From the NCBI GenBank assembly GCA_963741715.1, contig CAVUJA010000001.1:2056205-2120204 (forward strand): a stretch of 64,000 bases of DNA, written 5' to 3'. A model generated the notes under the pieces. It did not search any database and was not told the DNA's origin. It worked only from the letters and a program-made list of their open reading frames with translations. Position numbers and translations under genes: made by a program. Below, in pieces: positions 3,086 through 59,174 of the stretch. Positions within the stretch are counted from its first letter, which is position 1. Every line of letters starts with the position of its first letter. This DNA comes from an uncultured Acidobacteriota bacterium. GTDB taxonomy: Bacteria; Acidobacteriota; Vicinamibacteria; Vicinamibacterales; Fen-181.

Positions 3086-3139
3086 TTGCGCATTGTGCAT
3101 TGTGCATTGTGCGTTGTGCATTGTGCGTTGTGCGTTGAC
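3086..3139. repeat. 7-bp tandem array (CATTGTG/CGTTGTG, about 7 units)
   Basis: Direct reading gives cattgtg cattgtg cattgtg cgttgtg cattgtg cgttgtg cgttgac. It lies between the lhr stop and the nei start. Confidence 0.9.
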
Positions 3140-4023: not shown

Positions 4024-4079
4024 GTGTGTGCATTCTGCATTCTGCATTCTGCATTTTGCATTTTGCATTCTGCATTGAC
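4024..4079. repeat. 7-bp tandem array (CATTCTG/CATTTTG, about 7 units)
   Basis: Direct reading gives cattctg x3, cattttg x2, cattctg, cattgac. It lies just downstream of the nei stop. Confidence 0.9.
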
Positions 4080-7019: not shown

Positions 7020-7577
7020 CGGCCAGGCTTGGCCCTGCGCTCCGTGCGCTCCTCGGGATCGATGCCATCCGCATGAGCCGTTCGACGGTTTCAACCACGA
7101 GCCCACAGAGGCTGTCACGCGCGACGGCATCGCGGCTCGGCCACCGGCTCCCACGCCCCCGGTGGGCGAGCCGGGAGGGGCGGCGGGGCGGCGCCGGCAC
7201 GACAAGCACGGGCGCGGGAGGCTTCTCGTGGCGGCGCGGCCCCGCCGCCCCTCGCGCCACGGGCTTCGCCCGCGGCGCCGATGCCCGCGGTCACCGGATC
7301 TCTCACGGGCGACGGGTGCCGATCTGCCCTTGTGGGCTCTGTGAGCTCGGTGGTTCCTCCCGCATTCCATCCGCCCGAGAATGTGCACAATCCTGAGCCT
7401 GCGCTCACTTGCGTTGAGTCGGGGCTCTCGGTCCGTCGCGACGCTGCGAGTGGCGGGTGGCCGGGCTGGCCGCATCTGCCCCTCGACGGCGCTCGGGGCA
7501 CGGTGAGCCTTGCCGAACCGTGGCGACCGCGCGGGCCGACGCGTCCCGCGGCCGAGCGCGGAGCGTCTGAGCGCGCA

Positions 7578-8042
7578 CTACTTGACCGTGAGGGTGCCCT
7601 TCATGCCGACGTTGAAGTGGCCAGGGAAGGTGCAGATGAACATGTAGTCGCCCCGCTGCGCGGGCGCGGTGAAGGTGACCTCCGCGGTTTCACCGGGACC
7701 AACCAGCTTCGTGTAGGCGAGAAGCAGCGGCTGGACGGCGGGCGCCAGGAAGTCCGTGTCGCGCGCCGACGCCGACTTGTCGACGACGGTCTTCGCGTCC
7801 GAGGCCTTCTTCAGCAGGACGAAGTTGTGGCCCATCGCCACCTTGGGCATGTTGCCGACGTCCTCGAGTACCACCTTGATCGACTCGCCCGGAGTTGCGG
7901 CGATCGCGGCGGGGGCGAACCTCATGTTGTCGCCGACCTGGATCTCGATCACCCGCGGCGCGGCCGCCGCCGGTGCGACCGGCACGACCGCGAACGACAG
8001 CAGCACGACGCACAGACTCGCAATTGCGCGCACACGTCCCTC
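7578..8042 (-). CDS. azurin-like blue copper protein (cupredoxin) with signal peptide
   Basis: The copper-ligand pattern MGHNFVL ... CTFPGH...M(KG) is present. A GTG start at 8042 is preceded by a GGAGG SD. The longer track ORF is upstream read-through. Confidence 0.8.
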   Translation of the reverse strand, partial: EGRVRAIASLCVVLLSFAVVPVAPAAAAPRVIEIQVGDNMRFAPAAIAATPGESIKVVLEDVGNMPKVAMGHNFVLLKKASDAKTVVDKSASARDTDFLAPAVQPLLLAYTKLVGPGETAEVTFTAPAQRGDYMFICTFPGHFNVGMKGTLTVK

Positions 8043-8124
8043 CGCTCTGAAGCAACCTGGTACCCACAGTGGACGAGCCCCTCCTCCACGGTAACCAATC
8101 ACCTCTGCCGGCGCAACCGCCGGT

Positions 8125-9057
8125 TCAGCCGGCGAACACGCTCTCGAGGACGAAGAGGACGTTCGCGGGCCGCTCGGCCAGCCGCCGCATGTACCACGGG
8201 AACCAGAACTCGCCGTAACTGACCAGCACCCGCAGCGGCGCGTGCTGGGCGGCGAGCCGGGCCTGGAGCGATCGCCGGATCCCGTAGAGCATTTCGAACT
8301 CGCACCCGATCGTGTTCGAGACGCGGCGGGCAAGGGCCGTGCGAATGCGGGTGATCAGCCGCTCGTCGTGCGTGCCCACCGCGAGGAACGCGCCCGCCGG
8401 CACACCCGGCCGCAGCATGCGCAGCGCGAGCTGGTGATAGTTCTCGTCCACGTCGGCCTTGCGGGGAAATGCGAGTTCGGGCGGCTCGCGGTAGGCGCCC
8501 TTGACCAGGCGGATGGCCGGAGCCAGCGGCAGCAGCGCCTCGAGGTCGTTCCGGGTGCGCCGGAGGTAGGCCTGCAGGCAGACGCCGACCCTGGTCGATC
8601 CGGCGCGCGCGCGGCGAAACAGCTCCAGCGTCGCGTCGACGTACTTGGTGCCCTCCATGTCGATCCACACCATGTTGCCGTGCGACTCGGCGCGGGCGAC
8701 GAGCAGGGCCAAGTTGCGGCCGCAGGCGTCGAGGCCGAGATCCAGGCCAAGTTGCGTGAGCTTCACCGACACCTGCGCGTCGAGCCGCATCGTCGCGATG
8801 CGGTCGATGAGTTCGAGGTAGTGTCGCGTGACCGCCTCGGCTTCCGCGAGGCTCGACAGGTTCTCGCCCAGGTGCGTGACGATGGTGCCGGCCCGGTGCT
8901 GCTCCTGCAGCTGGCGGCAGGCGTCCAGCGCCTCTTCCATGGTTTCGCCCGGCATGAAGCGGGAGGTCGATCGGCGCACGAAGGGCAGGCGTGTCGCCTT
9001 CTCGCGCAGCCAGACGCTCTCGGCCCCGGCAAGCAGGGCGCTCCTCATGATTGACAT
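8125..9057 (-). CDS. proline dehydrogenase (monofunctional PRODH family)
   Basis: Family-like stretches include VSVKLTQLGLD, VWIDMEGTKYVD, RLVKGAY and FEMLYGIR. The start is taken at MSIMRSALL (ATG at 9057). Confidence 0.75.
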   Translation of the reverse strand: MSIMRSALLAGAESVWLREKATRLPFVRRSTSRFMPGETMEEALDACRQLQEQHRAGTIVTHLGENLSSLAEAEAVTRHYLELIDRIATMRLDAQVSVKLTQLGLDLGLDACGRNLALLVARAESHGNMVWIDMEGTKYVDATLELFRRARAGSTRVGVCLQAYLRRTRNDLEALLPLAPAIRLVKGAYREPPELAFPRKADVDENYHQLALRMLRPGVPAGAFLAVGTHDERLITRIRTALARRVSNTIGCEFEMLYGIRRSLQARLAAQHAPLRVLVSYGEFWFPWYMRRLAERPANVLFVLESVFAG

Positions 9058-9225
9058 CGCGTGGGCACCCCTCCACCATCTTAACAAGCCGCCGGCGTTC
9101 GGCTCGCCAATGACGAGCTTTGAGGCCGCTGCGGTGGCTGTTATGCTCGAAGAAAGGGTTGCCCGCAACGACCACGAATCGGTCCGGTCTGTGTTGCACG
9201 AACAGGCCGCAGCTGCGCATCGAGG

Positions 9226-9403
9226 CTGGATGCCTTGAGGGGCTGGAATCCTTGCGAATGAGTCAAGTTCTCGCGACGCCATCCGGGCCCCTCAAGGCAT
9301 CTAGAGCCCCGCGCTCGCGCGGGGCCAGCCAACAGCGTTTCTGGTCTAGCGAGGCGGGCGTCGTCGCCGGACATGCTTGGCGGTCCGAGGCCCGCCTCGC
9401 TGG
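9226..9403 (+). repeat. structured intergenic repeat element, copy A (about 178 bp, three nested hairpins)
   Basis: About 90% identical by eye over about 133 bp to the reverse complement of 27909-28080. Hairpin 1 is gatgccttgagggg...cccctcaaggcatc, hairpin 2 is gccccgcgc-tcg-cgcggggc, and hairpin 3 is agcgaggcggg...cccgcctcgct. Confidence 0.85.
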
Positions 9404-9426
9404 ACTGCTGCACGGAAGGACGCGAC

Positions 9427-10359
9427 ATGCTCAACATTGCCCCCGACATCACCGCGCTCGTCGGACGCACGCCGCTCGTACGCCTCAACCGCATCGGCGC
9501 CAACCTGCCCGGCCGCCTGGTGGCCAAGCTCGAAAGCTTCAACCCCTGCGGCAGCGTCAAGGACCGGATTGGCGTGTCGATGATCGAGGCGGCCGAACGT
9601 GAGGGACACATCCGTCCCGACACCATCCTGCTCGAAGCCACGAGCGGCAACACGGGCATCGCCCTCGCATTCACCGCGGCCGCCCGCGGCTACCGGCTCG
9701 TCCTGCTGATGCCCGACACCATGAGCCTCGAGCGGAGGAAGATGCTCAAGGCGCTCGGCGCCGAGTTGGTGCTCACCCCGGGGGCCGAGGGCATGCCGGG
9801 CGCGATCCGGCGGGCCGCAGAACTGGCGGAGGGCGATTCCCGCTACGTGCTGATGCGTCAGTTCTCCAATCCCGCGAACCCCGACGTTCACCGCCGGACG
9901 ACGGCCGAGGAGATCTGGAAGGACACCGACGGCCAGGTCGACTTCCTGGTCGCCGGCGTCGGCACCGGAGGCACCGTGACGGGGGTCGGCGAGGTGATCA
10001 AGGCGCGCAAGCCTTCGTTCAAGATCGTCGCCGTGGAACCCGCCGCCTCGCCGGTGCTCTCGGGCGGCAAGCCGGGGCCCCACAAGATCCAGGGCCTGGG
10101 CGCCGGCTTCGTGCCCGAGATCCTCCGCACCGACTTGATTGACGAGGTCATCACGGTCTCGAACGAAGCGTCCGGGGACATGGCGCGCCGCCTCGCCAAG
10201 GAAGAGGGCATCGTGTCGGGAATCTCCTGCGGTGCCGCGACGGTCGGCGGGGTGGAGGTGGCCAAGCGCGAGGAGAACCGCGGCAAGTTGATCGTCGTCG
10301 TGCTGCCCGACACCGGGGAGCGCTACCTGAGCACCTGGCTCTTCGAGGATCAAGCATGA
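9427..10359 (+). CDS. cysK: cysteine synthase A (O-acetylserine sulfhydrylase)
   Basis: [22 protein letters not shown]...[11 protein letters not shown] contains the PLP lysine, and SGNTG is present. An SD, ggaagga, lies upstream of the ATG at 9427. Confidence 0.92.
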
Positions 10360-11303
10360 GCGAGGCACCAGACCGCCGGCTGACGGTGGATGGCGGCGGC
10401 GACGCGCCCCGCCTGTCGCTCTCCGCCGTGGTCCGGCACATGTGCTCAGACGCCGACGGCCTGATCAGGCCGGGGTCGAAGGCGCCGCACCCCAACCTGC
10501 CGTCCCGTGAAGCGCTCGCGCACATGGTGGACGGCTTTCGCTCGGTCTTGTTTCCGGGCTACTTCTTCACCCAGCGCGAGCCCACGGCCGAAGCGCTCGA
10601 GTTCCACGTCGGCGCGACGCTCGACCGGGTGATGCGCGTGCTCACCGAGCAGGTGCACCGCGCGCTGTGCTTCGCGTGCGCGGAACGCGGGCCGGACCGG
10701 TGCACCGACTGCGAGGAGCGGGCCGACGAGATCGCCAGGCGGTTCCTCGCCCGCCTGCCCGACGTCCGGCGGCTGCTGGCGGGCGACGTCCACGCCGCCT
10801 ACGACGGCGACCCCGCGGCGACGAGCCCTGCCGAGACGATCCTCTGCTACCCGGGGGTGCTCGCGCTCACCTGTCAGCGCCTCGCGCACGAACTCTACGT
10901 GCTGGGCGTGCCGCTGCTGCCGCGCATGATCACCGAGCACGCGCACACGCTCACCGGAATCGACATCCACCCCGGCGCCAGCATCGGCGAGCGCTTCTTC
11001 ATCGACCACGGCACCGGCGTCGTGATCGGCGAGACCTCCGAGATTGGCAACGGCGTGCGCCTCTACCAGGGCGTCACGCTCGGCGCCCGCAGCTTTCCGC
11101 TGGACGAGCAGGGGCGCCCGGTGAAGGGCGTCCCGCGCCACCCGATCGTCGAGGACGACGTCATCGTGTACAGCGGGGCGACGATCCTCGGGAGGATTAC
11201 CGTGGGCGCGGGCTCGATCATCGGCGGAAACGTGTGGCTCACCCGCAGCGTGCCGCCGGGCAGCCGGATCCAGCAGAAGACGGGGACGCGGACCGCGGAG
11301 TGA
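10356..11303 (+). CDS. cysE: serine O-acetyltransferase (long N-terminal form)
   Basis: The hexapeptide-repeat core reads [43 protein letters not shown]. An ATGA overlap couples it to the cysK stop. Confidence 0.88.
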
Positions 11304-11318
11304 CGGGCGACGGGGCGG

Positions 11319-12089
11319 CTACCGCCCGCCCTCCCGCCACGGATAGCCTGGAATCGCCGACCCGAGCTCCTCGCGCTCGACGTCGCGCCATTCTCCCGGC
11401 GCCAGCGCGCCCAGCGTGAACCCGCCGAAGGAGACGCGCCGAAGCCGCGTCACCTCGTGGCCGACGGCCTCGAACAGGCGCCGAATCTCGCGGTTCCGAC
11501 CTTCTTGCAGCCGCACGACCAGGTGCGTCTCCCGACCGGACCGCTTTCGCACCTGGACGTCGTCTGCCGCCAGGCGCCCGCCGCCCGCTTCCACGCCGGC
11601 CGTCAACGTGATCGCAGACTCGTCACTCAGCTCTCCGCGCACCGTGGCCGTGTAGACCCGCGGCACCGCGTTCGCCGGATCGGTCAGCCAGTCGGCCAGG
11701 CGCGTGTCGGTGGTGAGGAGGAGGAGGCCCGAGGTGGCGAGGTCGAGCCGGCCGACGGCCACCAGGTGCCCATCGACGCCGGTCACCAGGTCGAACACGG
11801 TCGGGCGCCCTCGCTCGTCGCGTCGCGTCGTAACGACGCCGCGCGGTTTGTTGAGGAGGACGAGGCGCCAGGCGGCGCGGACGCAGGAACGGCCGTCGAC
11901 GGCCACGACGATGCGTTCGGGCACGACGAGCGCGTCCGGGTCGCGCACCGTCCGGCCGTCCACCTCCACCCGCCCGCTGGCAATGAGCCGCGTGGCCTCG
12001 GCGCGGGAAGCGATCCCGAGCTTCGAGAGCGCACGGTTCAACGGGACACGTCCCGCGCCGGCGCGCGGTCGTCGCAGGTGTGGAGCCAT
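11319..12089 (-). CDS. rRNA pseudouridine synthase (RsuA/RluB family, S4 domain)
   Basis: An S4-like N-terminus (LNRALSKLGIASRAEATRLIASGRVEVDG) and the catalytic motif GRLDLATSGLLLLTTD are present. Confidence 0.85.
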   Translation of the reverse strand: MAPHLRRPRAGAGRVPLNRALSKLGIASRAEATRLIASGRVEVDGRTVRDPDALVVPERIVVAVDGRSCVRAAWRLVLLNKPRGVVTTRRDERGRPTVFDLVTGVDGHLVAVGRLDLATSGLLLLTTDTRLADWLTDPANAVPRVYTATVRGELSDESAITLTAGVEAGGGRLAADDVQVRKRSGRETHLVVRLQEGRNREIRRLFEAVGHEVTRLRRVSFGGFTLGALAPGEWRDVEREELGSAIPGYPWREGGR

Positions 12090-12916: not shown

Positions 12917-13001
12917 CCTCCCTCGTCCCTCGTCCCCCGTCCCTCGTCCCTCGTCCCTGTTAACTCTTCCTTCTTCCCTCTTCCCTCTTCCCTCTTCCCT
13001 G
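12917..13001. repeat. 7-bp tandem arrays (CCCTCGT x5, then CCCTCTT x4)
   Basis: They fill the convergent gap between the truA stop (12916) and the amidohydrolase stop (13002). Confidence 0.9.
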
Positions 13002-26730: not shown

Positions 26731-27906
26731 TCAGAACACGAACAGCGCGTTGATGCTCAGCGTCACCTGCGTCTTGCCGAAGGAGCCGTCCGACAACTCG
26801 AAGACGGCGCGGTTCGACCAGTCCCCGCGCAGGTCGCCGCGGACGACGAGCTTGGGGTGGGGACGGAACTCGGGCGTCAGCGTGATCTCCTCGAGGGCCT
26901 GGACGTAGCCGGTCCGCGCCCCGAACGGATCGTCGAACCACTCGGCGCGCACCGTGAACGCGAAGCGGTCCGCCGCCTGGCAGCGGGCGTATCCCGCAAT
27001 TCCCTGCCAGTGCGCGTCGGCCACGCCGCCGCCCGCGGTCTCCGGGAGCGGCACCTGGCTCTCCCAGCCGTAGGCGTAGTTCAGCGTGAGGGCGAGCCGC
27101 GAACCGGCCTTGAAGACGCCGTAGCTGTCCACCGTGTGGCGCGTGCTGTCGCCGGTGTCGGCCTGCTCGGGGCCGCCCAGGTACGCCACGACGAGAGACG
27201 CGCGGTCGGACGGGTTCGCCTCGAGCTGCGCGCCGATCGACTTCCCGGTGTTGTTGTCCGTCGCGTTGTCCCAGCCGTTGACGAGCAGCGCCTGCCCCGA
27301 TACCTTGTCGCTGAACGCGTACGACACGCGAAGCCCGGTGTGGCTCACGGGCTCGGCGTAGCCGAACAGGAACGAGTGCGACTGGTTGTCGTTGAAGCCC
27401 TCGTAGCCGTCCACGACCTCGTACCCGATGTGGGTCGTGAACTTCCCCGCGTCGAAGCGCAGCCCGCGCCCCGCGGCGGCGACGTAGCTCACGAACGCCT
27501 GGAGGATGTCGAAGTCGCCCGCGTCGCCGTTCTCGTCGCGGAACAGGCCGGCTGCCGCGGTCACGTTCGCCACGGCGCCGGCCATGAAGTCGATGCGGAA
27601 TCCCGCCTGCCCGGGGTTCGACACCTCGCGCTGCACGACGAGCTGCGCGACGTCGAGCCTCGCGCTGCCGCTCACCGTGTCGAACACCCTGAACTGGTTG
27701 GTGCGAGTGGCGGGCGAGTTGAAATTGCCCACGTACGACGTGGACACCATGCCGTTGACGGCAACCTGCTCGTGCCACGGCGGCGTCTTGGGCGCCGGAT
27801 CTGGCGTCGCGGATTGCGCCTGCGCAACGGCGGCCGCCAGGCACGCCATCGTGCACGCGACGATGACGACGACCGGGCGGCGGGGCGGAAAGTAATGGCG
27901 AGGCAT
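26731..27906 (-). CDS. outer-membrane beta-barrel porin-like protein
   Basis: A signal peptide (RRPVVVIVACTMACLAAAVAQA) precedes alternating beta-strand sequence, and the C-terminus ends in F (INALFVF). The start at 27906 is preferred because codons upstream of it lie inside repeat element copy B. Confidence 0.65.
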   Translation of the reverse strand: MPRHYFPPRRPVVVIVACTMACLAAAVAQAQSATPDPAPKTPPWHEQVAVNGMVSTSYVGNFNSPATRTNQFRVFDTVSGSARLDVAQLVVQREVSNPGQAGFRIDFMAGAVANVTAAAGLFRDENGDAGDFDILQAFVSYVAAAGRGLRFDAGKFTTHIGYEVVDGYEGFNDNQSHSFLFGYAEPVSHTGLRVSYAFSDKVSGQALLVNGWDNATDNNTGKSIGAQLEANPSDRASLVVAYLGGPEQADTGDSTRHTVDSYGVFKAGSRLALTLNYAYGWESQVPLPETAGGGVADAHWQGIAGYARCQAADRFAFTVRAEWFDDPFGARTGYVQALEEITLTPEFRPHPKLVVRGDLRGDWSNRAVFELSDGSFGKTQVTLSINALFVF

Positions 27907-27908
27907 GG

Positions 27909-28080
27909 CTAGCGAGGCGCGCCTCAGACGGTCGAGCATGTTCGGGCGAGCCTCGCTAGCCATAGAGACGCTGTTGGCTGGCCCCGCGCGAGCGCGGGGC
28001 GCTAGATGCCTTGAGGGGCCCGGATGGCGTCGCGAGAACTTGACTCATGCGCAAGGATCTTAACCCCTCAAGGCATCTAG
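27909..28080 (-). repeat. structured intergenic repeat element, copy B (reverse complement of copy A)
   Basis: See copy A. This copy contains the ybgA-like stop codon (28077-28079) at one end and abuts the porin ATG (27906) at the other. Confidence 0.85.
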
Positions 28081-29033
28081 ACGTGATTCCTCAGCATCAG
28101 CTCCTTGGGGTGCGGCTCCAGGTAGGTCTGGCCTGCGAGGTACCCCACCCCGCATCGCCGGACGTGGTGCCGGAACAGCGTGATCGGTACGACGAGCGGC
28201 ACGAGCCCCTCCTGATAGTCGGCCACGATCTCCGCCAGCTCGGCCCTCGTCGCCTCGTCCAGCGTCTTCCGGAAGTAGCCGAGCATGTGCTGCAGCACGT
28301 TCACGTGCTTTCGGGGCGTCGCCAGCGTGGCGAGCCCGTTCATGAAGCCCGATTCGTACTCCGCCTTCACGACGGCGCGCGGCAGTTCCGCCGAGGTCGC
28401 CACCAGGCGGCCGAGCGCGCGATACGCGTCGGGCGAATGCGCGAGCATCGTGAGCTTGTGCGCCGTGTGGAAGCGTACGAGCGCCCCCACCGTCCACCGC
28501 CCGGAGAACAGGTCGCGCAACCGCCGGTAGGCGAACACGCGCTCGACGAAGTTGTCGCGAAGCCTCGGGTCGGACAGCCGCCCTTCTTCCTCGACCGGGA
28601 GCAGCGGCAGCCGCGCGATCAGCGCCTCGGCGAACAGGCCGCGACCGGTGCGGGCCGGGGCCCCGTTCGCGTCGTACACCTTCACCCGCTCCATGCCGCA
28701 GCTGGGCGAGTCCTTCTTGAGGATGTAGCCGTCGAGATCCTCGCGCGCCAGCGCCTCGGCGCGCCGTGCCGACCAGCGCGCCATGGCCTCGGTGTGGTCC
28801 GTGGCGCTCTTCACGCCGAGCAGGCGAACCGACGCACCCGCGCGCTGCAGTCGAATCGGCTCGCGCGGAATCCCCATGCCCACCTCGGCTTCGGGGCACA
28901 CCGGCACCCACTCGACGAACTGTCCGAAGGTGTCCACGAGGAACGCGTCGCGCTTGTGGCCGCCGTCGAAGCGCACCTTCTGCCCGAGCAGGCACGACGA
29001 CACGCCGATGCGAACGGTCACGGGCTCGGCCAT
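28077..29033 (-). CDS. DUF523/DUF1722 (YbgA-like) protein
   Basis: MAEPVTVRIGVSSCLLGQKVRFDGGHKRD is the DUF523 signature. An SD, ggggagaag, lies upstream of the ATG at 29033. The gene lies downstream of a photolyase, as in the E. coli ybgA/phr pairing. Confidence 0.75.
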   Translation of the reverse strand: MAEPVTVRIGVSSCLLGQKVRFDGGHKRDAFLVDTFGQFVEWVPVCPEAEVGMGIPREPIRLQRAGASVRLLGVKSATDHTEAMARWSARRAEALAREDLDGYILKKDSPSCGMERVKVYDANGAPARTGRGLFAEALIARLPLLPVEEEGRLSDPRLRDNFVERVFAYRRLRDLFSGRWTVGALVRFHTAHKLTMLAHSPDAYRALGRLVATSAELPRAVVKAEYESGFMNGLATLATPRKHVNVLQHMLGYFRKTLDEATRAELAEIVADYQEGLVPLVVPITLFRHHVRRCGVGYLAGQTYLEPHPKELMLRNHV

Positions 29034-29163
29034 CTTCTCCCCTTTGGAGGCACACCTGAGCTTGGCGCGCATAGTCTACCGCGTCTCCGGGCAAACGCAC
29101 GCGCCCCGGTCAGCGATTGGCCGCCGCATCGGAGCGGAGGGTGACGACGCCGGCTGAAGCCGG

Positions 29164-30652: not shown

Positions 30653-30740
30653 TCGTGCCGAATGTCGAATGTCGAATGCCGAATGTAGAATGTAGAATGT
30701 CGAATGTCGAATGTAGAATGCCGAATGTAGAAATGTCGGG
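30653..30740. repeat. 7-bp tandem array (GAATGTC/GAATGTA/GAATGCC, about 11 units)
   Basis: The reverse complement belongs to the GCATTCN family. It lies in the divergent phr-galM gap and is preceded by an AT-rich aatataacaaaagg. Confidence 0.92.
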
Positions 30741-32018: not shown

Positions 32019-32138
<120 letters not shown>

Positions 32139-33612: not shown

Positions 33613-35751
33613 TCACCGTGTCCCCAAGTACTTCCGCGGCTCCTGCGCGAATCTCCGTTTGCATTCCTCCGAACAGAAGTAGTACCGGTTGCCGTTGAAG
33701 TCGAGCGTGAGGCCAGCAGCCAGTGCCTGCGCCTGGACTGTGGCCATCCCGCAAACGGGGTCGATGGCGTCGTGTGTACCTGGTCCGGGCCTGGCTTGTA
33801 CGTCGGAGGAACCGTTGATGGCGGGATTCTCGCCGCCGAGCGGACTAGCCTGGGCGACTCGGGGAAACCCGGGCCGGGCGTGGTACCCTGGCCGGCGGTC
33901 AGCCGTCGTGGCCGCAAGCCGAGTTGCGGGGAGAGCAGCCGTCGCGGTGTCGGCCGAACGCACGGCCGCCTCGTCCACCTCTGTCTCGACCGCCGGAGTC
34001 GCCGCAACAGGGCCAGGCGGTTGCACTTCGGCCTTCGCGGCGTATCGAGCAGGGTCCTTGTCGAACTCCGCCTTGCAGGCGTCTGTCAGGAAGTAGTAGG
34101 TCTTCCCCGCATGGGTCGACCTCAGGACGTTGGGCGCGGTGACATCCACGTCCGCGCCGCAGACGGGGTCAGTTCTGAAGACGCTGCGACCGGTCGCCAC
34201 TGGCGGCGAGGCAGGTCCCGGGTCGGACACGCCGGCCGGGTCGGCCACGGGGCTCCGCCAATCCCGGGCGGCACCGGGCGCCGGGGCGGGAACCGCGGCG
34301 GATGTCGCCCGCCCGGATGACGGCGGCGGCGCCGCCTCCTTCTCCGCATACTCCGCGGGCTTCGCCTCGAACTGCTTCTTGCACAGATCGGAGCAGAAGT
34401 AGTAGGTGCGGCCCTGGTGCGCGACGGCATGGCCGTCGGCGGTCGCCTTGGACCTGTCCACCGACATGCCGCAGACCGGATCGGTTTCCGGGACCGTGAT
34501 ACCGGTCGCCGCGAGCTGCATCCGGCTCTCGGAATCGATGAGAAAGTTGCCAGCCACGACTACCTGGTCGCCTGGCACGAGTCCCCGCACCACTTCGATC
34601 CGGTCATCAACCCTCCAGCCCGTTTCAATCCGGCGCGGCTCGAAGTAGCCGTTGCCGCGGTCGACGAACACGGTCTTCCGGATGCCGGAGTCCACGACGG
34701 CATCGACGGGAACCGTGATCGACTCCGGCAGGCTGACTGACAGGTCCACGTCGACGAACATGCCCGGGCGCAGCGCGAACCCCGGGTTTGGCGTGTCCAG
34801 TCGGAGCTTCAGCGTCCGGGTGGATGGGTCGAACTGGGGAAGGACGTCCCCCATCCGGCCGGAGATGGACGCGCCCTCGCTGTAAGGCAGCGAGATCTTC
34901 GCCGCGGCGCCTGGCTGGACGTAGCGCGCGTCGCTCTCGAAGAGGTCCGCCAGCACCCAGACGTTGGTGAGGTCCGCAATCTTGTAGAACTCGGTCGCGC
35001 GGTCGAATCGCTGGTTGGGAGACGCGCTGCGCTCCAGAACGTACCCCGATACCGGAGAGCGGAGTTCGATGGTTGCCACCCGCTGCCGTGTCCGCGCAAT
35101 CGCGGCGATCTGCGTGTCGCTCATGCCCAACGCCTGCAGGCTCTCGGTGGCCTGCCTGACCTGGTCGCGGGTGAGGTCCGACTGCTCGGTCGGCTCGCCC
35201 TTGTCGGCGCTGATCCGATCGAGCGTGTTCAACGCATAGATGAACGCCTGTTGCGCCGCGAGCGAATCGCGGCTGTAGAACGTCAGCAGCAGCTGGTCCC
35301 TTCGCACCAGGCTGCCGGCCGAATTGGGGAGGAGTTCCCGGATCGTGCCCTCCCCGGCAGCGATAAGCCGGTAGATCCGGTTCTCGTCCACCGTCACGCG
35401 GCCCACGGTCCTGATCTTCCGCGTGACCGACGATCGTGCGACCTGGCCCACCCGGATGCCGAGGACCTGCTGGCGCTCCACGGGCACCCGCAACGCGCCG
35501 GGCGGGACAGACGACCCGCTGGCGACGGCGGGGTCGTCGGCATAGACCGGTTCGAGCTTCATCCCGCAGTCGGGCGCGGTGCCGGGCTTGTCCGACTTGT
35601 AGGAGGGGTGCATCGGATCGACCCAGTAGAGCACCCGTCGCGCCGCCACGGGCGGTCCCGCCCCGTGAGCGCGCCACGTCAGCCAGGCGCCCCCCAGGAA
35701 GCACGCGGCGCCGAAGGCGACAACGAGGGCCACCGATGTCAGCCTCTTCAT
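33613..35751 (-). CDS. CusB-like RND periplasmic adaptor with an N-terminal heavy-metal-binding motif and three C-terminal YHS/TRASH domains
   Basis: The N-terminus reads YWVDPMHPSYKSDKPGTAPDCGMKLEP and is followed by an MFP core. Three DPVCG(M)...YYF(C/L)S..C...F...P..Y modules follow, separated by Pro/Ala-rich linkers. Confidence 0.8.
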   Translation of the reverse strand: MKRLTSVALVVAFGAACFLGGAWLTWRAHGAGPPVAARRVLYWVDPMHPSYKSDKPGTAPDCGMKLEPVYADDPAVASGSSVPPGALRVPVERQQVLGIRVGQVARSSVTRKIRTVGRVTVDENRIYRLIAAGEGTIRELLPNSAGSLVRRDQLLLTFYSRDSLAAQQAFIYALNTLDRISADKGEPTEQSDLTRDQVRQATESLQALGMSDTQIAAIARTRQRVATIELRSPVSGYVLERSASPNQRFDRATEFYKIADLTNVWVLADLFESDARYVQPGAAAKISLPYSEGASISGRMGDVLPQFDPSTRTLKLRLDTPNPGFALRPGMFVDVDLSVSLPESITVPVDAVVDSGIRKTVFVDRGNGYFEPRRIETGWRVDDRIEVVRGLVPGDQVVVAGNFLIDSESRMQLAATGITVPETDPVCGMSVDRSKATADGHAVAHQGRTYYFCSDLCKKQFEAKPAEYAEKEAAPPPSSGRATSAAVPAPAPGAARDWRSPVADPAGVSDPGPASPPVATGRSVFRTDPVCGADVDVTAPNVLRSTHAGKTYYFLTDACKAEFDKDPARYAAKAEVQPPGPVAATPAVETEVDEAAVRSADTATAALPATRLAATTADRRPGYHARPGFPRVAQASPLGGENPAINGSSDVQARPGPGTHDAIDPVCGMATVQAQALAAGLTLDFNGNRYYFCSEECKRRFAQEPRKYLGTR

Positions 35752-40722: not shown

Positions 40723-40745
40723 AGATTCGGCCTCCACGGCTAACC

Positions 40746-40801
40746 GGCCTGCGACTTGCGACCTGCGGCTTGCGGCCTCCGACTTGCGGCCTGCGGCGCT
40801 G
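40746..40801. repeat. 7-bp tandem array (GCGRCYT family, about 8 units)
   Basis: The units read ggcctgc gacttgc gacctgc ggcttgc ggcctcc gacttgc ggcctgc ggcgctg. It lies in the divergent pepT-SSS gap. Confidence 0.85.
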
Positions 40802-42600: not shown

Positions 42601-42625
42601 AGCGCGTGACAACTGTGATCTTCAA

Positions 42626-42880
<255 letters not shown>

Positions 42881-45443: not shown

Positions 45444-45545
45444 GTCTCGGTTTCTCGACTCTTTGACTCGGACTCTCGACTGTCGACTGTCGACGCTCGA
45501 CTCTCGACTGGGAACTCTTGACTTTCGACTCTCGACTCCTGACTA
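45444..45545. repeat. 7-bp tandem array (CGACTCT/CGACTGT/TGACTCT family, about 14 units)
   Basis: The sequence reads ...ctcg actcttt gactcgg actctcg actgtcg actgtcg acgctcg actctcg.... The array overlaps the cusA stop codon (45543-45545). Confidence 0.92.
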
Positions 45546-48865: not shown

Positions 48866-48928
48866 GCTTACGACTCTCGACTTTCGACTGAGGACCCTTG
48901 ACTCTCGACTCTTGACTCTCGACTACCT
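48866..48928. repeat. 7-bp tandem array (ACTCTCG/ACTTTCG/ACTCTTG, about 8 units) inside the cusB-cusA junction
   Basis: It belongs to the same family and has the same orientation as the array at 45444-45545. Confidence 0.9.
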
Positions 48929-48976: not shown

Positions 48977-50017
48977 TCAGAAGTAATACGTCTGGCCGTC
49001 GTGCGTCACGGTCTTGCCCGCGGCGGCCGCCTTCTTGGGATCGAGGCTCATGCCGCACACGACGTCGGCGACGGACGCGGAAACCGGCCCTGCGGCCGCG
49101 GCCTTCAGGCGCGTCTCGGAATCGAGGCGGAACGTCCCGGACACGACGACGCGTTCGCCCGCCATCACGCCCTTCGTGATTTCGACCTGGTCGCCCATGC
49201 GCCAGCCCGTTTCGATGGCTCGCGGCTCGAAGTAGCCATCGCCGCGGTCCACGAACAGCGTCTTCCGCACGCCCGAGTCGATCACGGCGTCGGCCGGGAC
49301 GGTGATGGCCTCCGGCCTGTCCAGGTGCAGCACCAGGTCCACGAACAGGTCGGGGCGGAGCACGTTGCCGGGGTTGTCGAGCTCGAACCGCGTCTTGAAC
49401 ACGCGCGTCTGCGGATCGAACTGCGGGAGCACGTCGCTCATCCGCGCCTGGAACTCCCGGCCCTGGTAGGTCACCGTGGCCGTCGCGCCGGGCGTGAGGA
49501 ATTCCCGGTCCTTCTCGAAGATCTCCGCCATCACCCAGACGTGCGAGAGGTCCGAGATGAAGTACATCTCCGTCCCCTTGTCGAACCCCTGCTCGGGCAG
49601 GATGCTGCGCGAAATCACGAAGCCATTGATGGGGGAGTAGATCCTCACTTCCTGAGGCGCGACGCGCGTCTGCTGGATCTCCGAGATCTGAAGGCCGCTC
49701 ATCCCCAGGGTCCTCAGGGAGCCCACCGCCACCTGCAGGCTGAGCTGGGCGGCCGGCTCGGCCTTCCCGGCGGCATCGGCAGACACGGGCACCAGGCGCA
49801 TGCCGCACATCGGGCAATCGCCGGGACGATCCGACCGGTAGGCGGGGTGCATGGGACAGGTGTAGATCACCGCCTTCTGCTGGGCGGACGTGCCCGTCAC
49901 CGTTGAGGAGCGCCGCCCGCCAATCCACGACCCGGCCGCGAACGCGAACCCGAGACCCGCCAGGACAACGAGAAGCAGGGCAGATTCCTTCATGGCATGC
50001 GATGTAGGAGAAGGCAT
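48977..50017 (-). CDS. cusB: CusB-like RND periplasmic adaptor with a heavy-metal-binding N-terminal motif and a C-terminal YHS/TRASH domain cut by an in-frame TGA
   Basis: CPMHPAYRSDRPGDCPMCGMRLVP is followed by an MFP core. The C-terminus reads DVVCGMSLDPKKAAAAGKTVTHDGQTYYF-TGA-SLECEQKFEKNPRQYAR-TAG, so the frame continues to 48923. Confidence 0.8.
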   Translation of the reverse strand: MPSPTSHAMKESALLLVVLAGLGFAFAAGSWIGGRRSSTVTGTSAQQKAVIYTCPMHPAYRSDRPGDCPMCGMRLVPVSADAAGKAEPAAQLSLQVAVGSLRTLGMSGLQISEIQQTRVAPQEVRIYSPINGFVISRSILPEQGFDKGTEMYFISDLSHVWVMAEIFEKDREFLTPGATATVTYQGREFQARMSDVLPQFDPQTRVFKTRFELDNPGNVLRPDLFVDLVLHLDRPEAITVPADAVIDSGVRKTLFVDRGDGYFEPRAIETGWRMGDQVEITKGVMAGERVVVSGTFRLDSETRLKAAAAGPVSASVADVVCGMSLDPKKAAAAGKTVTHDGQTYYF

Positions 50018-57342: not shown

Positions 57343-57497
57343 TGGCTAGTGGCCAGTGATCAGTGGCTTGTGGGTCACGCGTAACAATGTGGCAGACTAA
57401 CCACTGACCGCTAGCCACTAACCACTAGCCACTGACCACTAGCCACTAGCCACTGACCACTAGCCACTTGCCACTGACCACTAGCCACTAACCACTA
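57342..57497. repeat. opposed 7-bp arrays (GTGGCTA/GTGGCCA arm versus about 14 units of CCACTAG/CCACTGA/CCACTAA)
   Basis: The left arm (57342-57378) is the approximate reverse complement of the long right arm (57399-57497). This is the largest array in the window. Confidence 0.92.
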
Positions 57498-59070: not shown

Positions 59071-59174
59071 GTCATTCAGCATTCGGCATTCGGCATTCCG
59101 CATTGCGCGTCTTGCCCGTTGTGCATTTTGCATTGTGCATTCTGCATTTTGCATTGTGCATTGTGCATTCTGCT
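59071..59174. repeat. 7-bp tandem arrays (GCATTCG x3 and related, then TGCATTN x7)
   Basis: The units read cattcag cattcgg cattcgg cattccg cattgcg ... gtgcatt ttgcatt gtgcatt ctgcatt ttgcatt gtgcatt gtgcatt. It runs into the stop codon of the mrfB-like gene (59173). Confidence 0.92.

Follow-up and report, generated by a model that had tools for sequence, protein, structure and literature searches.

Closest described palindromic repeats

The REP/BIME repeats of enterobacteria and pseudomonads, REPIN doublets included, are many-copy extragenic sequences made up of a mosaic of palindromic units and conserved linkers. They are found at the 3' ends of genes and between co-transcribed genes, occur in tandem arrangements, and keep their stems while their loops vary. 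REP sequences are reported to make upstream mRNA more stable; where a stop codon is near, they are reported to reduce translation. Several other groups of small repeats offer points of comparison. MITEs that insert at TA or CTAG include derivatives of the IS630/Tc1 type and the Correia elements of Neisseria. Mycobacterial interspersed repetitive units (MIRUs) and the Geobacter MITE 'Chunjie' lie inside operons, in very short intercistronic gaps, where their ends overlap the flanking stop or start codons, so that the operon is left intact. Finally, the hairpin elements derived from IS200/IS605 (PATEs) are associated with a guide-based choice of target.

Here, analysis of a 64-kb stretch of DNA from an uncultured member of the Acidobacteriota (hereafter the window) revealed two copies, A and B, of an element composed of three hairpins (H1, H2 and H3), which is probably a dispersed, non-autonomous, mosaic palindromic repeat of the MITE or REP/BIME kind and not a regulator of the neighbouring cysK and porin genes. 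It resembles REP/BIME repeats in copy number, mosaic build, placement, tandem arrangement and conserved stems with variable loops, its imperfect palindromes being arranged in an extragenic mosaic at high copy number. Its H1 (about 79 nt) and H3 (32-62 nt) are, however, far longer than the 20-40-nt REPs, its sequence is unrelated to that of published families, and no RAYT partner of it is known. In the REP super-families, each palindrome is marked on one side by a conserved tag, GTAG or CGTC (PMC3733652), whereas the modules of this element are bounded by CTAG. A CGTC-like ACGTC occurs in most H1 arms from metagenomes, and ATGCC in those of the window.

As in MITEs generally, the element is shorter than about 500 bp, non-coding and present in many dispersed copies. 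It shares with MITEs of the TA/CTAG type the inverted-repeat hairpins, the TA within CTAG at both ends, presence or absence among relatives, and a co-transcribed position next to genes. Unlike in these MITEs, the two ends of the composite are not inverted repeats of each other, as seen when the left end GACGTCTTGAA is set against the reverse complement of the right end, GCGAGGCGGGC, or the left end GACGTCTTGAACGG (GATGCCTTGAGGGG in the window) against the right-end reverse complement GCGAGGCGGGCC. Inverted repeats are internal to H1 and to H3 and do not span the composite. A further difference is that neither a transposase partner nor a full-length parent IS was found, the ~640 kb of metagenome loci described below containing no long element with such hairpin arms (H1 or H3) at its ends, and that any duplication is inseparable from stem sequence. 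The placement of the element at operon junctions recalls MIRUs and 'Chunjie'. MIRUs, however, are direct tandem units of 40-100 bp with small ORFs, and the three-hairpin palindromes have no sequence relation to them. With PATEs it shares subterminal hairpins at both ends, the lack of a composite inverted repeat and a short conserved junction tetranucleotide, but, unlike in PATEs, the same palindromic CTAG stands at both ends and no TnpA or TnpB partner was seen. Searches of literature full text with sequence strings of the element returned nothing, nor did a literature search on MITEs in Acidobacteria yield a description of it, and the family is apparently undescribed.

Two copies in the window

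The two copies, their modules and the genes beside them are as follows (positions are those of the window).

8125-9057, minus strand: proline dehydrogenase family gene (Pro_dh, PF01619), start at 9057, divergent from cysK; neighbour of copy A
9226-9403, plus strand: copy A as a whole (H1, H2, spacer, H3), in the 369 bp that separate the divergent Pro_dh and cysK genes
9226-9304, plus strand: H1 of copy A, with CTGG at its opening and CTAG at its close
9306-9325, plus strand: H2 of copy A, GCCCCGCG-CTCG-CGCGGGGC
9326-9345, plus strand: spacer after H2 of copy A, CAGCCAACAGCGTTTCTGGT
9346-9403, plus strand: H3 of copy A, CTAGCGAGGCGGGC ... GCCCGCCTCGCTGG
9427-10359, plus strand: cysK (cysteine synthase A, PF00291), neighbour of copy A
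26731-27906, minus strand: OmpL-like beta-barrel porin gene (PF07642), neighbour of copy B
27904-27962, minus strand: H3 of copy B with its stem extension, UAUGGCUAGCGAGGC paired with GCCUCGCUAGCCAUG
27909-28080, minus strand: copy B as a whole, occupying the complete gap from the DUF523/DUF1722 stop to the porin start
27981-28000, minus strand: H2 of copy B
28002-28080, minus strand: H1 of copy B, its first CTAG at 28080-28077
28077-29072, minus strand: 2-thiouracil desulfurase/DUF1722 (DUF523/DUF1722) gene, with its stop in the first CTAG of copy B

Read and aligned, copies A and B are the same three-hairpin element of ~175 bp. A repeat search of the window returned them as inverted arms (9219-9342 and 27964-28087; 124 nt, 91% complementary), and sensitive blastn aligned them over 184 nt at 84.8% identity (E = 1e-45). 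The stem of H1 in copy A is formed by GATGCCTTGAGGGG and CCCCTCAAGGCATC, and the former 14-mer has four matches in the window against 0.67 expected, all of them H1 arms. Within the 64 kb the GC palindrome is confined to the two copies, and nhmmer searches of the window with module profiles gave no third copy. Both copies are predicted to fold into three hairpins, at -124.1 kcal/mol for copy A (z = -6.8 against shuffled sequence) and -101.3 kcal/mol for copy B (z = -7.0). In copy A the outermost tetramers are CTGG rather than CTAG, and the H3 stem can be extended to 9343-9406; in copy B the first CTAG contains the TAG stop of the upstream gene (28079-28077).

An earlier, sequence-only reading had described two look-alike stretches of about 175 bp with three hairpins, and coordinates, alignment and folding all bear this description out. 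The spacing that it gave to the downstream genes was likewise recovered, copy A ending at 9403 ahead of the cysK ATG at 9427 and copy B at 27909 ahead of the porin ATG at 27906. Its coordinates for the copy ends hold, with the correction that the H3 stem of copy B runs beyond the end given there and pairs with the porin ATG.

Orthologous sites in relatives

Relatives whose CysK is 87-89% identical in amino acids, and whose gene order is that of the window, were compared at the Pro_dh-cysK junction, and relatives in the porin at the DUF1722-porin junction. The Pro_dh-cysK gap, 369 bp long in the window, measures 130 bp in locus L132 and 191 bp in L133, in both cases without the element. Between DUF1722 and the porin, L134 has 11 bp, with a Shine-Dalgarno sequence, and the contig that encodes protein P0123 has 27 bp, again without the element. 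In L135 this gap is 199 bp of unrelated sequence, and the native gene end and stop CACGTCTAG (a GTCTAG stop) are kept. Ahead of the orthologous cysK or porin, the element is therefore absent in L132, L133, L134, L135 and the P0123 contig.

Another relative syntenic with the window (Ga0209048_10000037, locus L230; 11336-14606 against 7575-12055 of the window) lacks the cysK found there, its Pro_dh gene being followed by ~170 nt and then by a cysE-like gene. The copy in L230/L216 does not form a clean filled/empty pair with the window, since the gene order differs. CTAG, and hence TA, stands at both ends of most copies, where it belongs to the stems as well; none of the sites compared gave an empty counterpart that could be aligned exactly. 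Because CTAG is palindromic and part of the stems, a target-site duplication is indistinguishable from stem sequence.

At cysK, copy A most likely adds a 178-nt structured leader and leaves the GGAAGGA ribosome-binding site free, this Shine-Dalgarno-like sequence lying outside the copy. At the other junction, copy B appears to stand in for the 11-27-nt DUF1722-porin junction of the relatives. The conserved porin ATG (27906-27904) is paired within its H3 stem. A public porin model (P0121, 402 aa) starts instead at the ATG at 27939 on the minus strand, inside the H3 loop, and the ATG-CCT start common to L134 lies 33 nt downstream of that ATG, paired in the stem. On the predicted fold, copy B would remove any nearby Shine-Dalgarno sequence and leave the conserved ATG-CCT start paired in a 15-bp stem. 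We infer that such effects of the element on its neighbours are incidental by-products.

A dispersed family

Further copies in the window's own 3.2-Mb contig, recognised by 100%-identical proteins, were sought by comparing six-frame translations of the element with a protein collection, and two proteins of that contig, P0241 and P0242, matched. P0241 is a spurious 227-aa ORF across a copy, its residues 121-180 being identical to the antisense translation of copy A. In P0242, a DUF4097 protein, the C-terminal tail runs into H3 from the opposite side. Since these ORFs read across two more copies, the genome holds at least four (A, B and these two), of which at least one lies at the 3' end of a gene in reversed orientation. 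A tblastn match that would have placed the P0241 copy upstream of a cysK paralogue ran into cysK antisense; it was dismissed as low-complexity noise, since the reconstructed possible sense-strand residues gave no CysK motifs.

A single exact 20-mer, covering the 3' arm of H2 and the spacer, served to collect the metagenome family, whose breadth, like the apparent invariance of H2 and the spacer, is subject to the corresponding ascertainment bias. The search returned 114 loci, 113 of them with the element or a remnant; L215 was a chance match. The loci come from more than 45 metagenome datasets, 35 from sample Ga0209048 alone, and yielded a non-redundant set of 73 copies that are full and a further 26 that are truncated where a contig or locus ends. 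One contig of 115.5 kb (Ga0209048_10000044) carries three copies and another of 48 kb carries two, a density that resembles the two copies per 64 kb of the window. A 120-kb contig of the same sample is syntenic with the window at ~75-78% nucleotide identity, so that the hosts are relatives. Judged from few named protein hits, the hosts of the family are probably a lineage of uncultured high-GC bacteria within the Acidobacteriota.

Contigs often break off within the element, and about one locus in four ends there. Rare forms lack H1 or H3 and leave a single CTAG at the junction (L217, L159 and L198), and head-to-tail tandem copies with one common CTAG were seen in L138, L202 and L188. In the ~640 kb of loci, neither H1 nor H3 occurs on its own, apart from the middle module; the idea that H1 and H3 are independently mobile mini-MITEs was rejected on this ground, and the forms without them are better read as deletions between CTAG repeats. 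Taken together, the copies in the genome and the more than 100 in metagenomes, their unrelated contexts, the breaks inside the element, the tandem copies and the presence or absence between relatives support the suggestion of the sequence-only reading that this is a small mobile, MITE- or REP-like element.

A plasmid collection gave no match to the element, a metagenome 20-mer taken from the window-type H1 arm matched nothing, and a viral scan with the 14-mer hit phage coding sequence by chance. Eleven matches to TGCCTTGAGGG...CCCTCAAGGCA in genome contigs belong to a different nested-palindrome family. These loci (L001-L011, on MAG contigs CALQHT02..., CAMATI01... and CAMBXJ01...) carry an unrelated multi-copy mosaic of ~190 bp, GTTGCCTTGAGGGATGGGGCCCTAC..., present one to six times per MAG in the fetched loci, and have only the 11-mer TGCCTTGAGGG in common with the window element.

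Anatomy and covariation of the stems

Members of the family are 150-190 bp long and consist of H1, the GC hairpin H2, a conserved spacer and H3, the modules being delimited by CTAG. The element opens with CTAG and H1 closes with CTA(G); its stem is ACGTCTTGAACGGCC in the family, with the compensated variant ATGCCTTGAGGGG in the window copies, and its loop holds a motif conserved family-wide and present in copy A, GCGAATGAGTCAAGTT. H2 is an 8-bp GC hairpin with a variable loop, and is followed by the spacer CAGCCAACAGCGTTTCTGG. H3 opens with CTAG, continues with the stem CGAGGCGGGC and closes with CTAG, and its interior of 0-30 nt varies by insertions and deletions; the 58-nt type seen in copy A is the most frequent in the family. 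Sequence conservation ends exactly at the left CTAG, in which A, T or G replaces C in 9 of 61 copies. A 4-bp target duplication of the whole element, as suggested by CTGG...CTGG in copy A and CTAG...CTAG in copy B, is not a rule, because many members have CTGG on the left and CTAG on the right.

One and the same host gene end, which reads ...SEYADKF before the stop, is occupied by different subtypes of the element in different metagenomes, with a 58-nt H3 in L200, a 44-nt H3 in L214 and none in L159 and L237. This suggests that the site has been used more than once or that H3 turns over.

In an alignment of 62 sequences, 97.2% of stem cells are paired and both sides have changed in 14 of 40 pairs. 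None of 500 shuffles scored as high for stem pairing and two-sided changes, and controls in which the pairing was slid were 34-42% paired. Compensatory changes on both arms are seen in H1 and in H3; H2 is invariant across the family, part of it having belonged to the search pattern. The structural constraint that had been proposed for the stems with variable interiors is thus confirmed by their covariation. Such covariation alone does not show RNA function, because DNA palindromes and inverted repeats covary likewise.

No conserved ORF was found in the element, the ATG in the loop being neither conserved nor constant in frame, and a micro-ORF or promoter in the conserved H1 loop was rejected for lack of a conserved ATG and of a promoter-like site. 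On either strand of either copy there is neither a sigma-70-like promoter nor an intrinsic terminator (GC-rich hairpin with U tract), and the earlier proposal that the element carries expression signals found no support. Rfam gave no match at the gathering score; at a permissive E-value only sub-threshold, hairpin-like matches appeared, the best with 26 bits against a gathering score of 77.5. That the copies form a family of small-RNA genes, each an independent transcription unit, would suit the conserved loop motif GCGAATGAGTCAAGTT and the stable structure, but seems very improbable in view of the missing promoter- and terminator-like signals on both strands, the ends that coincide with stop or start codons of neighbours, the loss of modules at CTAG junctions and the tandem copies with a common CTAG.

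Pairing of the H3 foot with the host flank

The H3 stem reaches 3 bp past its closing CTAG into host sequence. The element triplet that precedes the opening CTAG of H3 is complementary to the flank at position 1 in 66 and at position 2 in 63 of 80 copies, against 44 and 39.5, respectively, when partners are shuffled. The consensus triplet is GTT; among the 29 copies with another one, 15 are fully complementary to their own flank, a count reached in none of 2000 shuffles. Covarying pairs of triplet and flank include GTT/AAC, GGG/CCC, GTG/CAC and GGA/TCC, among others, and no such effect was seen at H1. The host bases involved mostly form the end of the last sense codon of a gene. With an internal GTT, the flank reads ...G TTC TAG (Phe-stop) on the gene strand, and about 38 of the 80 right ends listed read Phe-stop in a frame ending at CTAG. 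In general, Phe-stop typically accounts for an estimated 3-4% of proteins.

It is conceivable, though on balance doubtful, that the element chooses its target, or adapts after insertion, by base pairing of the H3-foot triplet with the host flank. This could take the form of a guide-like, re-programmable homing to amber stops, or of a templated extension of the palindrome that rewrites the element to fit the end of each host gene; the triplet would reflect either a preference for sites that pair with it or a later rewriting of the inserted copy, such as template switching inside the palindrome could bring about. Guide-like homing would be reminiscent of the guide sequences of IS200/IS605. As in PATEs, bases at the foot of a hairpin are complementary to bases flanking the junction. 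The complementarity seen here is, however, a direct 3-bp extension of the stem and differs from the arrangement of guide and cleavage site in IS608.

Placement relative to genes

Gene ends at the copies were judged by an ORF and GC3 test, with the following result.

H3 end (right CTAG), 57 assessable copies: stop of a converging gene in the terminal CTAG in 22; gene start within 60 nt, reading away, in 11
H1 end (left CTAG), 54 assessable copies: stop of a converging gene in the terminal CTAG in 7; gene start within 60 nt, reading away, in 29

At the H1 end, the next gene often begins after 3-26 nt, its Shine-Dalgarno sequence directly adjoining the CTAG, and the copies sit in very short intergenic gaps. 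Among co-directional copies flanked by a stop and a start, 11 have H3 first and two, including copy B, have H1 first, so that the usual orientation relative to flanking genes is the reverse of that of copy B. Copies also occur in divergent and convergent gaps, and in the extended ORF tail of P0242. Their neighbours are unrelated genes, among them those for DnaN, BamA, YbaB, a TonB-type receptor and a hydrogenase. Gene ends at the copies are native: the match of the BamA-like protein to the Omp85 Pfam model runs up to the last residue of the protein, and that of DnaN to its own model stops no more than one residue short of the protein's end. Stop-codon usage figures from a crude ORF caller contained too many false calls and were set aside.

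In L146, the frame of a transposase, IS66-like on our reading of the sequence by eye, apparently ends (...ILPEF, then stop) exactly at the H3 CTAG of an element copy, which suggests that the copy was inserted within or at the terminus of a different mobile element.

The sequence-only reading had proposed a cis-acting 5'-UTR RNA, and one rival explanation is a dedicated regulator of this kind (a riboswitch or leader) for cysK and the porin gene. In its favour, each window copy immediately precedes a gene, with the same orientation in both cases, and the predicted structure is strong. The element is missing from the orthologous cysK and porin leaders of syntenic relatives and has no Rfam match, more than 100 family members stand beside unrelated genes, and gene starts reading away are commoner at the H1 end (29) than at the H3 end (11), where they lie in the window. 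As a property of the family such a regulator is already refuted, and for the two genes of the window it is hardly credible.

CTAG is strongly depleted in the window: there are 31 sites, where base composition predicts 181 and a Markov estimate 66. CTGG and CCAG occur 383 and 395 times. Of the 31 CTAG sites, the two copies contain six, and heptamer arrays of the GCCACTA type another 17.

Such period-7 tandem arrays, of 5-15 units each and of at least ten different heptamers (including TTGTGCA, TGCATTC, TCCCTCT, CGAATGT, GCCACTA, CGGCCTG, TCTCGAC and ACTAACC), are scattered over the 64 kb:

3086-3137: period-7 array
4029-4076: period-7 array
12919-13000: period-7 array
30659-30738: period-7 array
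32075-32137: period-7 array
40745-40797: period-7 array
42625-42674: period-7 array
45453-45538: period-7 array
48871-48924: period-7 array
57396-57497: period-7 array
59073-59104: period-7 array
59119-59173: period-7 array

The window also contains a direct repeat pair (34508-34729 and 49095-49316; 222 nt, 72% identity) that may be paralogous coding sequence.

A probable mobile repeat at operon junctions

Placement and covariation also bear on the possibility that the host retains the element as a REP/BIME-like sequence that is co-transcribed between genes and acts at the RNA level, where it might shield upstream mRNA from 3' exonucleases, set expression ratios within operons or stall terminating ribosomes, since the hairpin begins at the stop codon. 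This would account for the tight placement between co-directional genes with a stop codon in the terminal CTAG, for the 11:2 orientation bias, for stems kept through compensatory change, for the 48 G-U pairs against 16 A-C mismatches on the H1-to-H3 strand and for the covariation of the H3 stem with the host flank. However, the mRNA in the prevailing orientation is the complement of the H1-to-H3 strand, in which the tolerated G-U pairs become C-A mismatches. Moreover, the corresponding junctions of relatives lack the element, a terminator-like U tract is missing, copies occur in divergent and convergent gaps and inside the extended ORF tail of P0242, and DNA palindromes would covary equally. 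We regard a host-retained element of this RNA-level kind as unlikely.

The reading that we favour is that of a dispersed, non-autonomous mosaic repeat which appears to spread, or to have spread, as one unit by insertion at CTAG/TA. The whole unit would insert into CTAG/TA sites through an enzyme supplied in trans, for which the terminal hairpins or inverted repeats, as DNA, would be the recognition signal. With CTAG depleted about six-fold in the genome, the surviving sites would be mostly C+TAG at gene ends, and because of this the copies would come to be packed between a stop codon and the ribosome-binding site of the next gene. Insertion into CTAG/TA, which in these genomes would largely mean C+TAG stops at operon junctions, is the simplest reading of the placement. 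The 11:2 bias in orientation could reflect selection at the RNA level rather than the choice of target.

Significance of the element

For genome annotation, the element accounts for long structured 'leaders', wrongly placed gene starts and spurious ORFs, as illustrated by the porin model P0121 and by P0241, and it also explains contig breaks in metagenome assemblies of the host lineage. With it, a family of mosaic palindromic repeats is described from uncultured high-GC bacteria that have been little studied, and the family shows an unusually precise association with C+TAG stop codons in a genome where CTAG is strongly depleted. This precise association and the covariation of the H3 stem with the host flank are its main points of interest and, if the pairing of the H3 foot with the flank reflects the mechanism of insertion, the element would represent, on a small scale, a natural case of targeting to gene ends that is guided by sequence.
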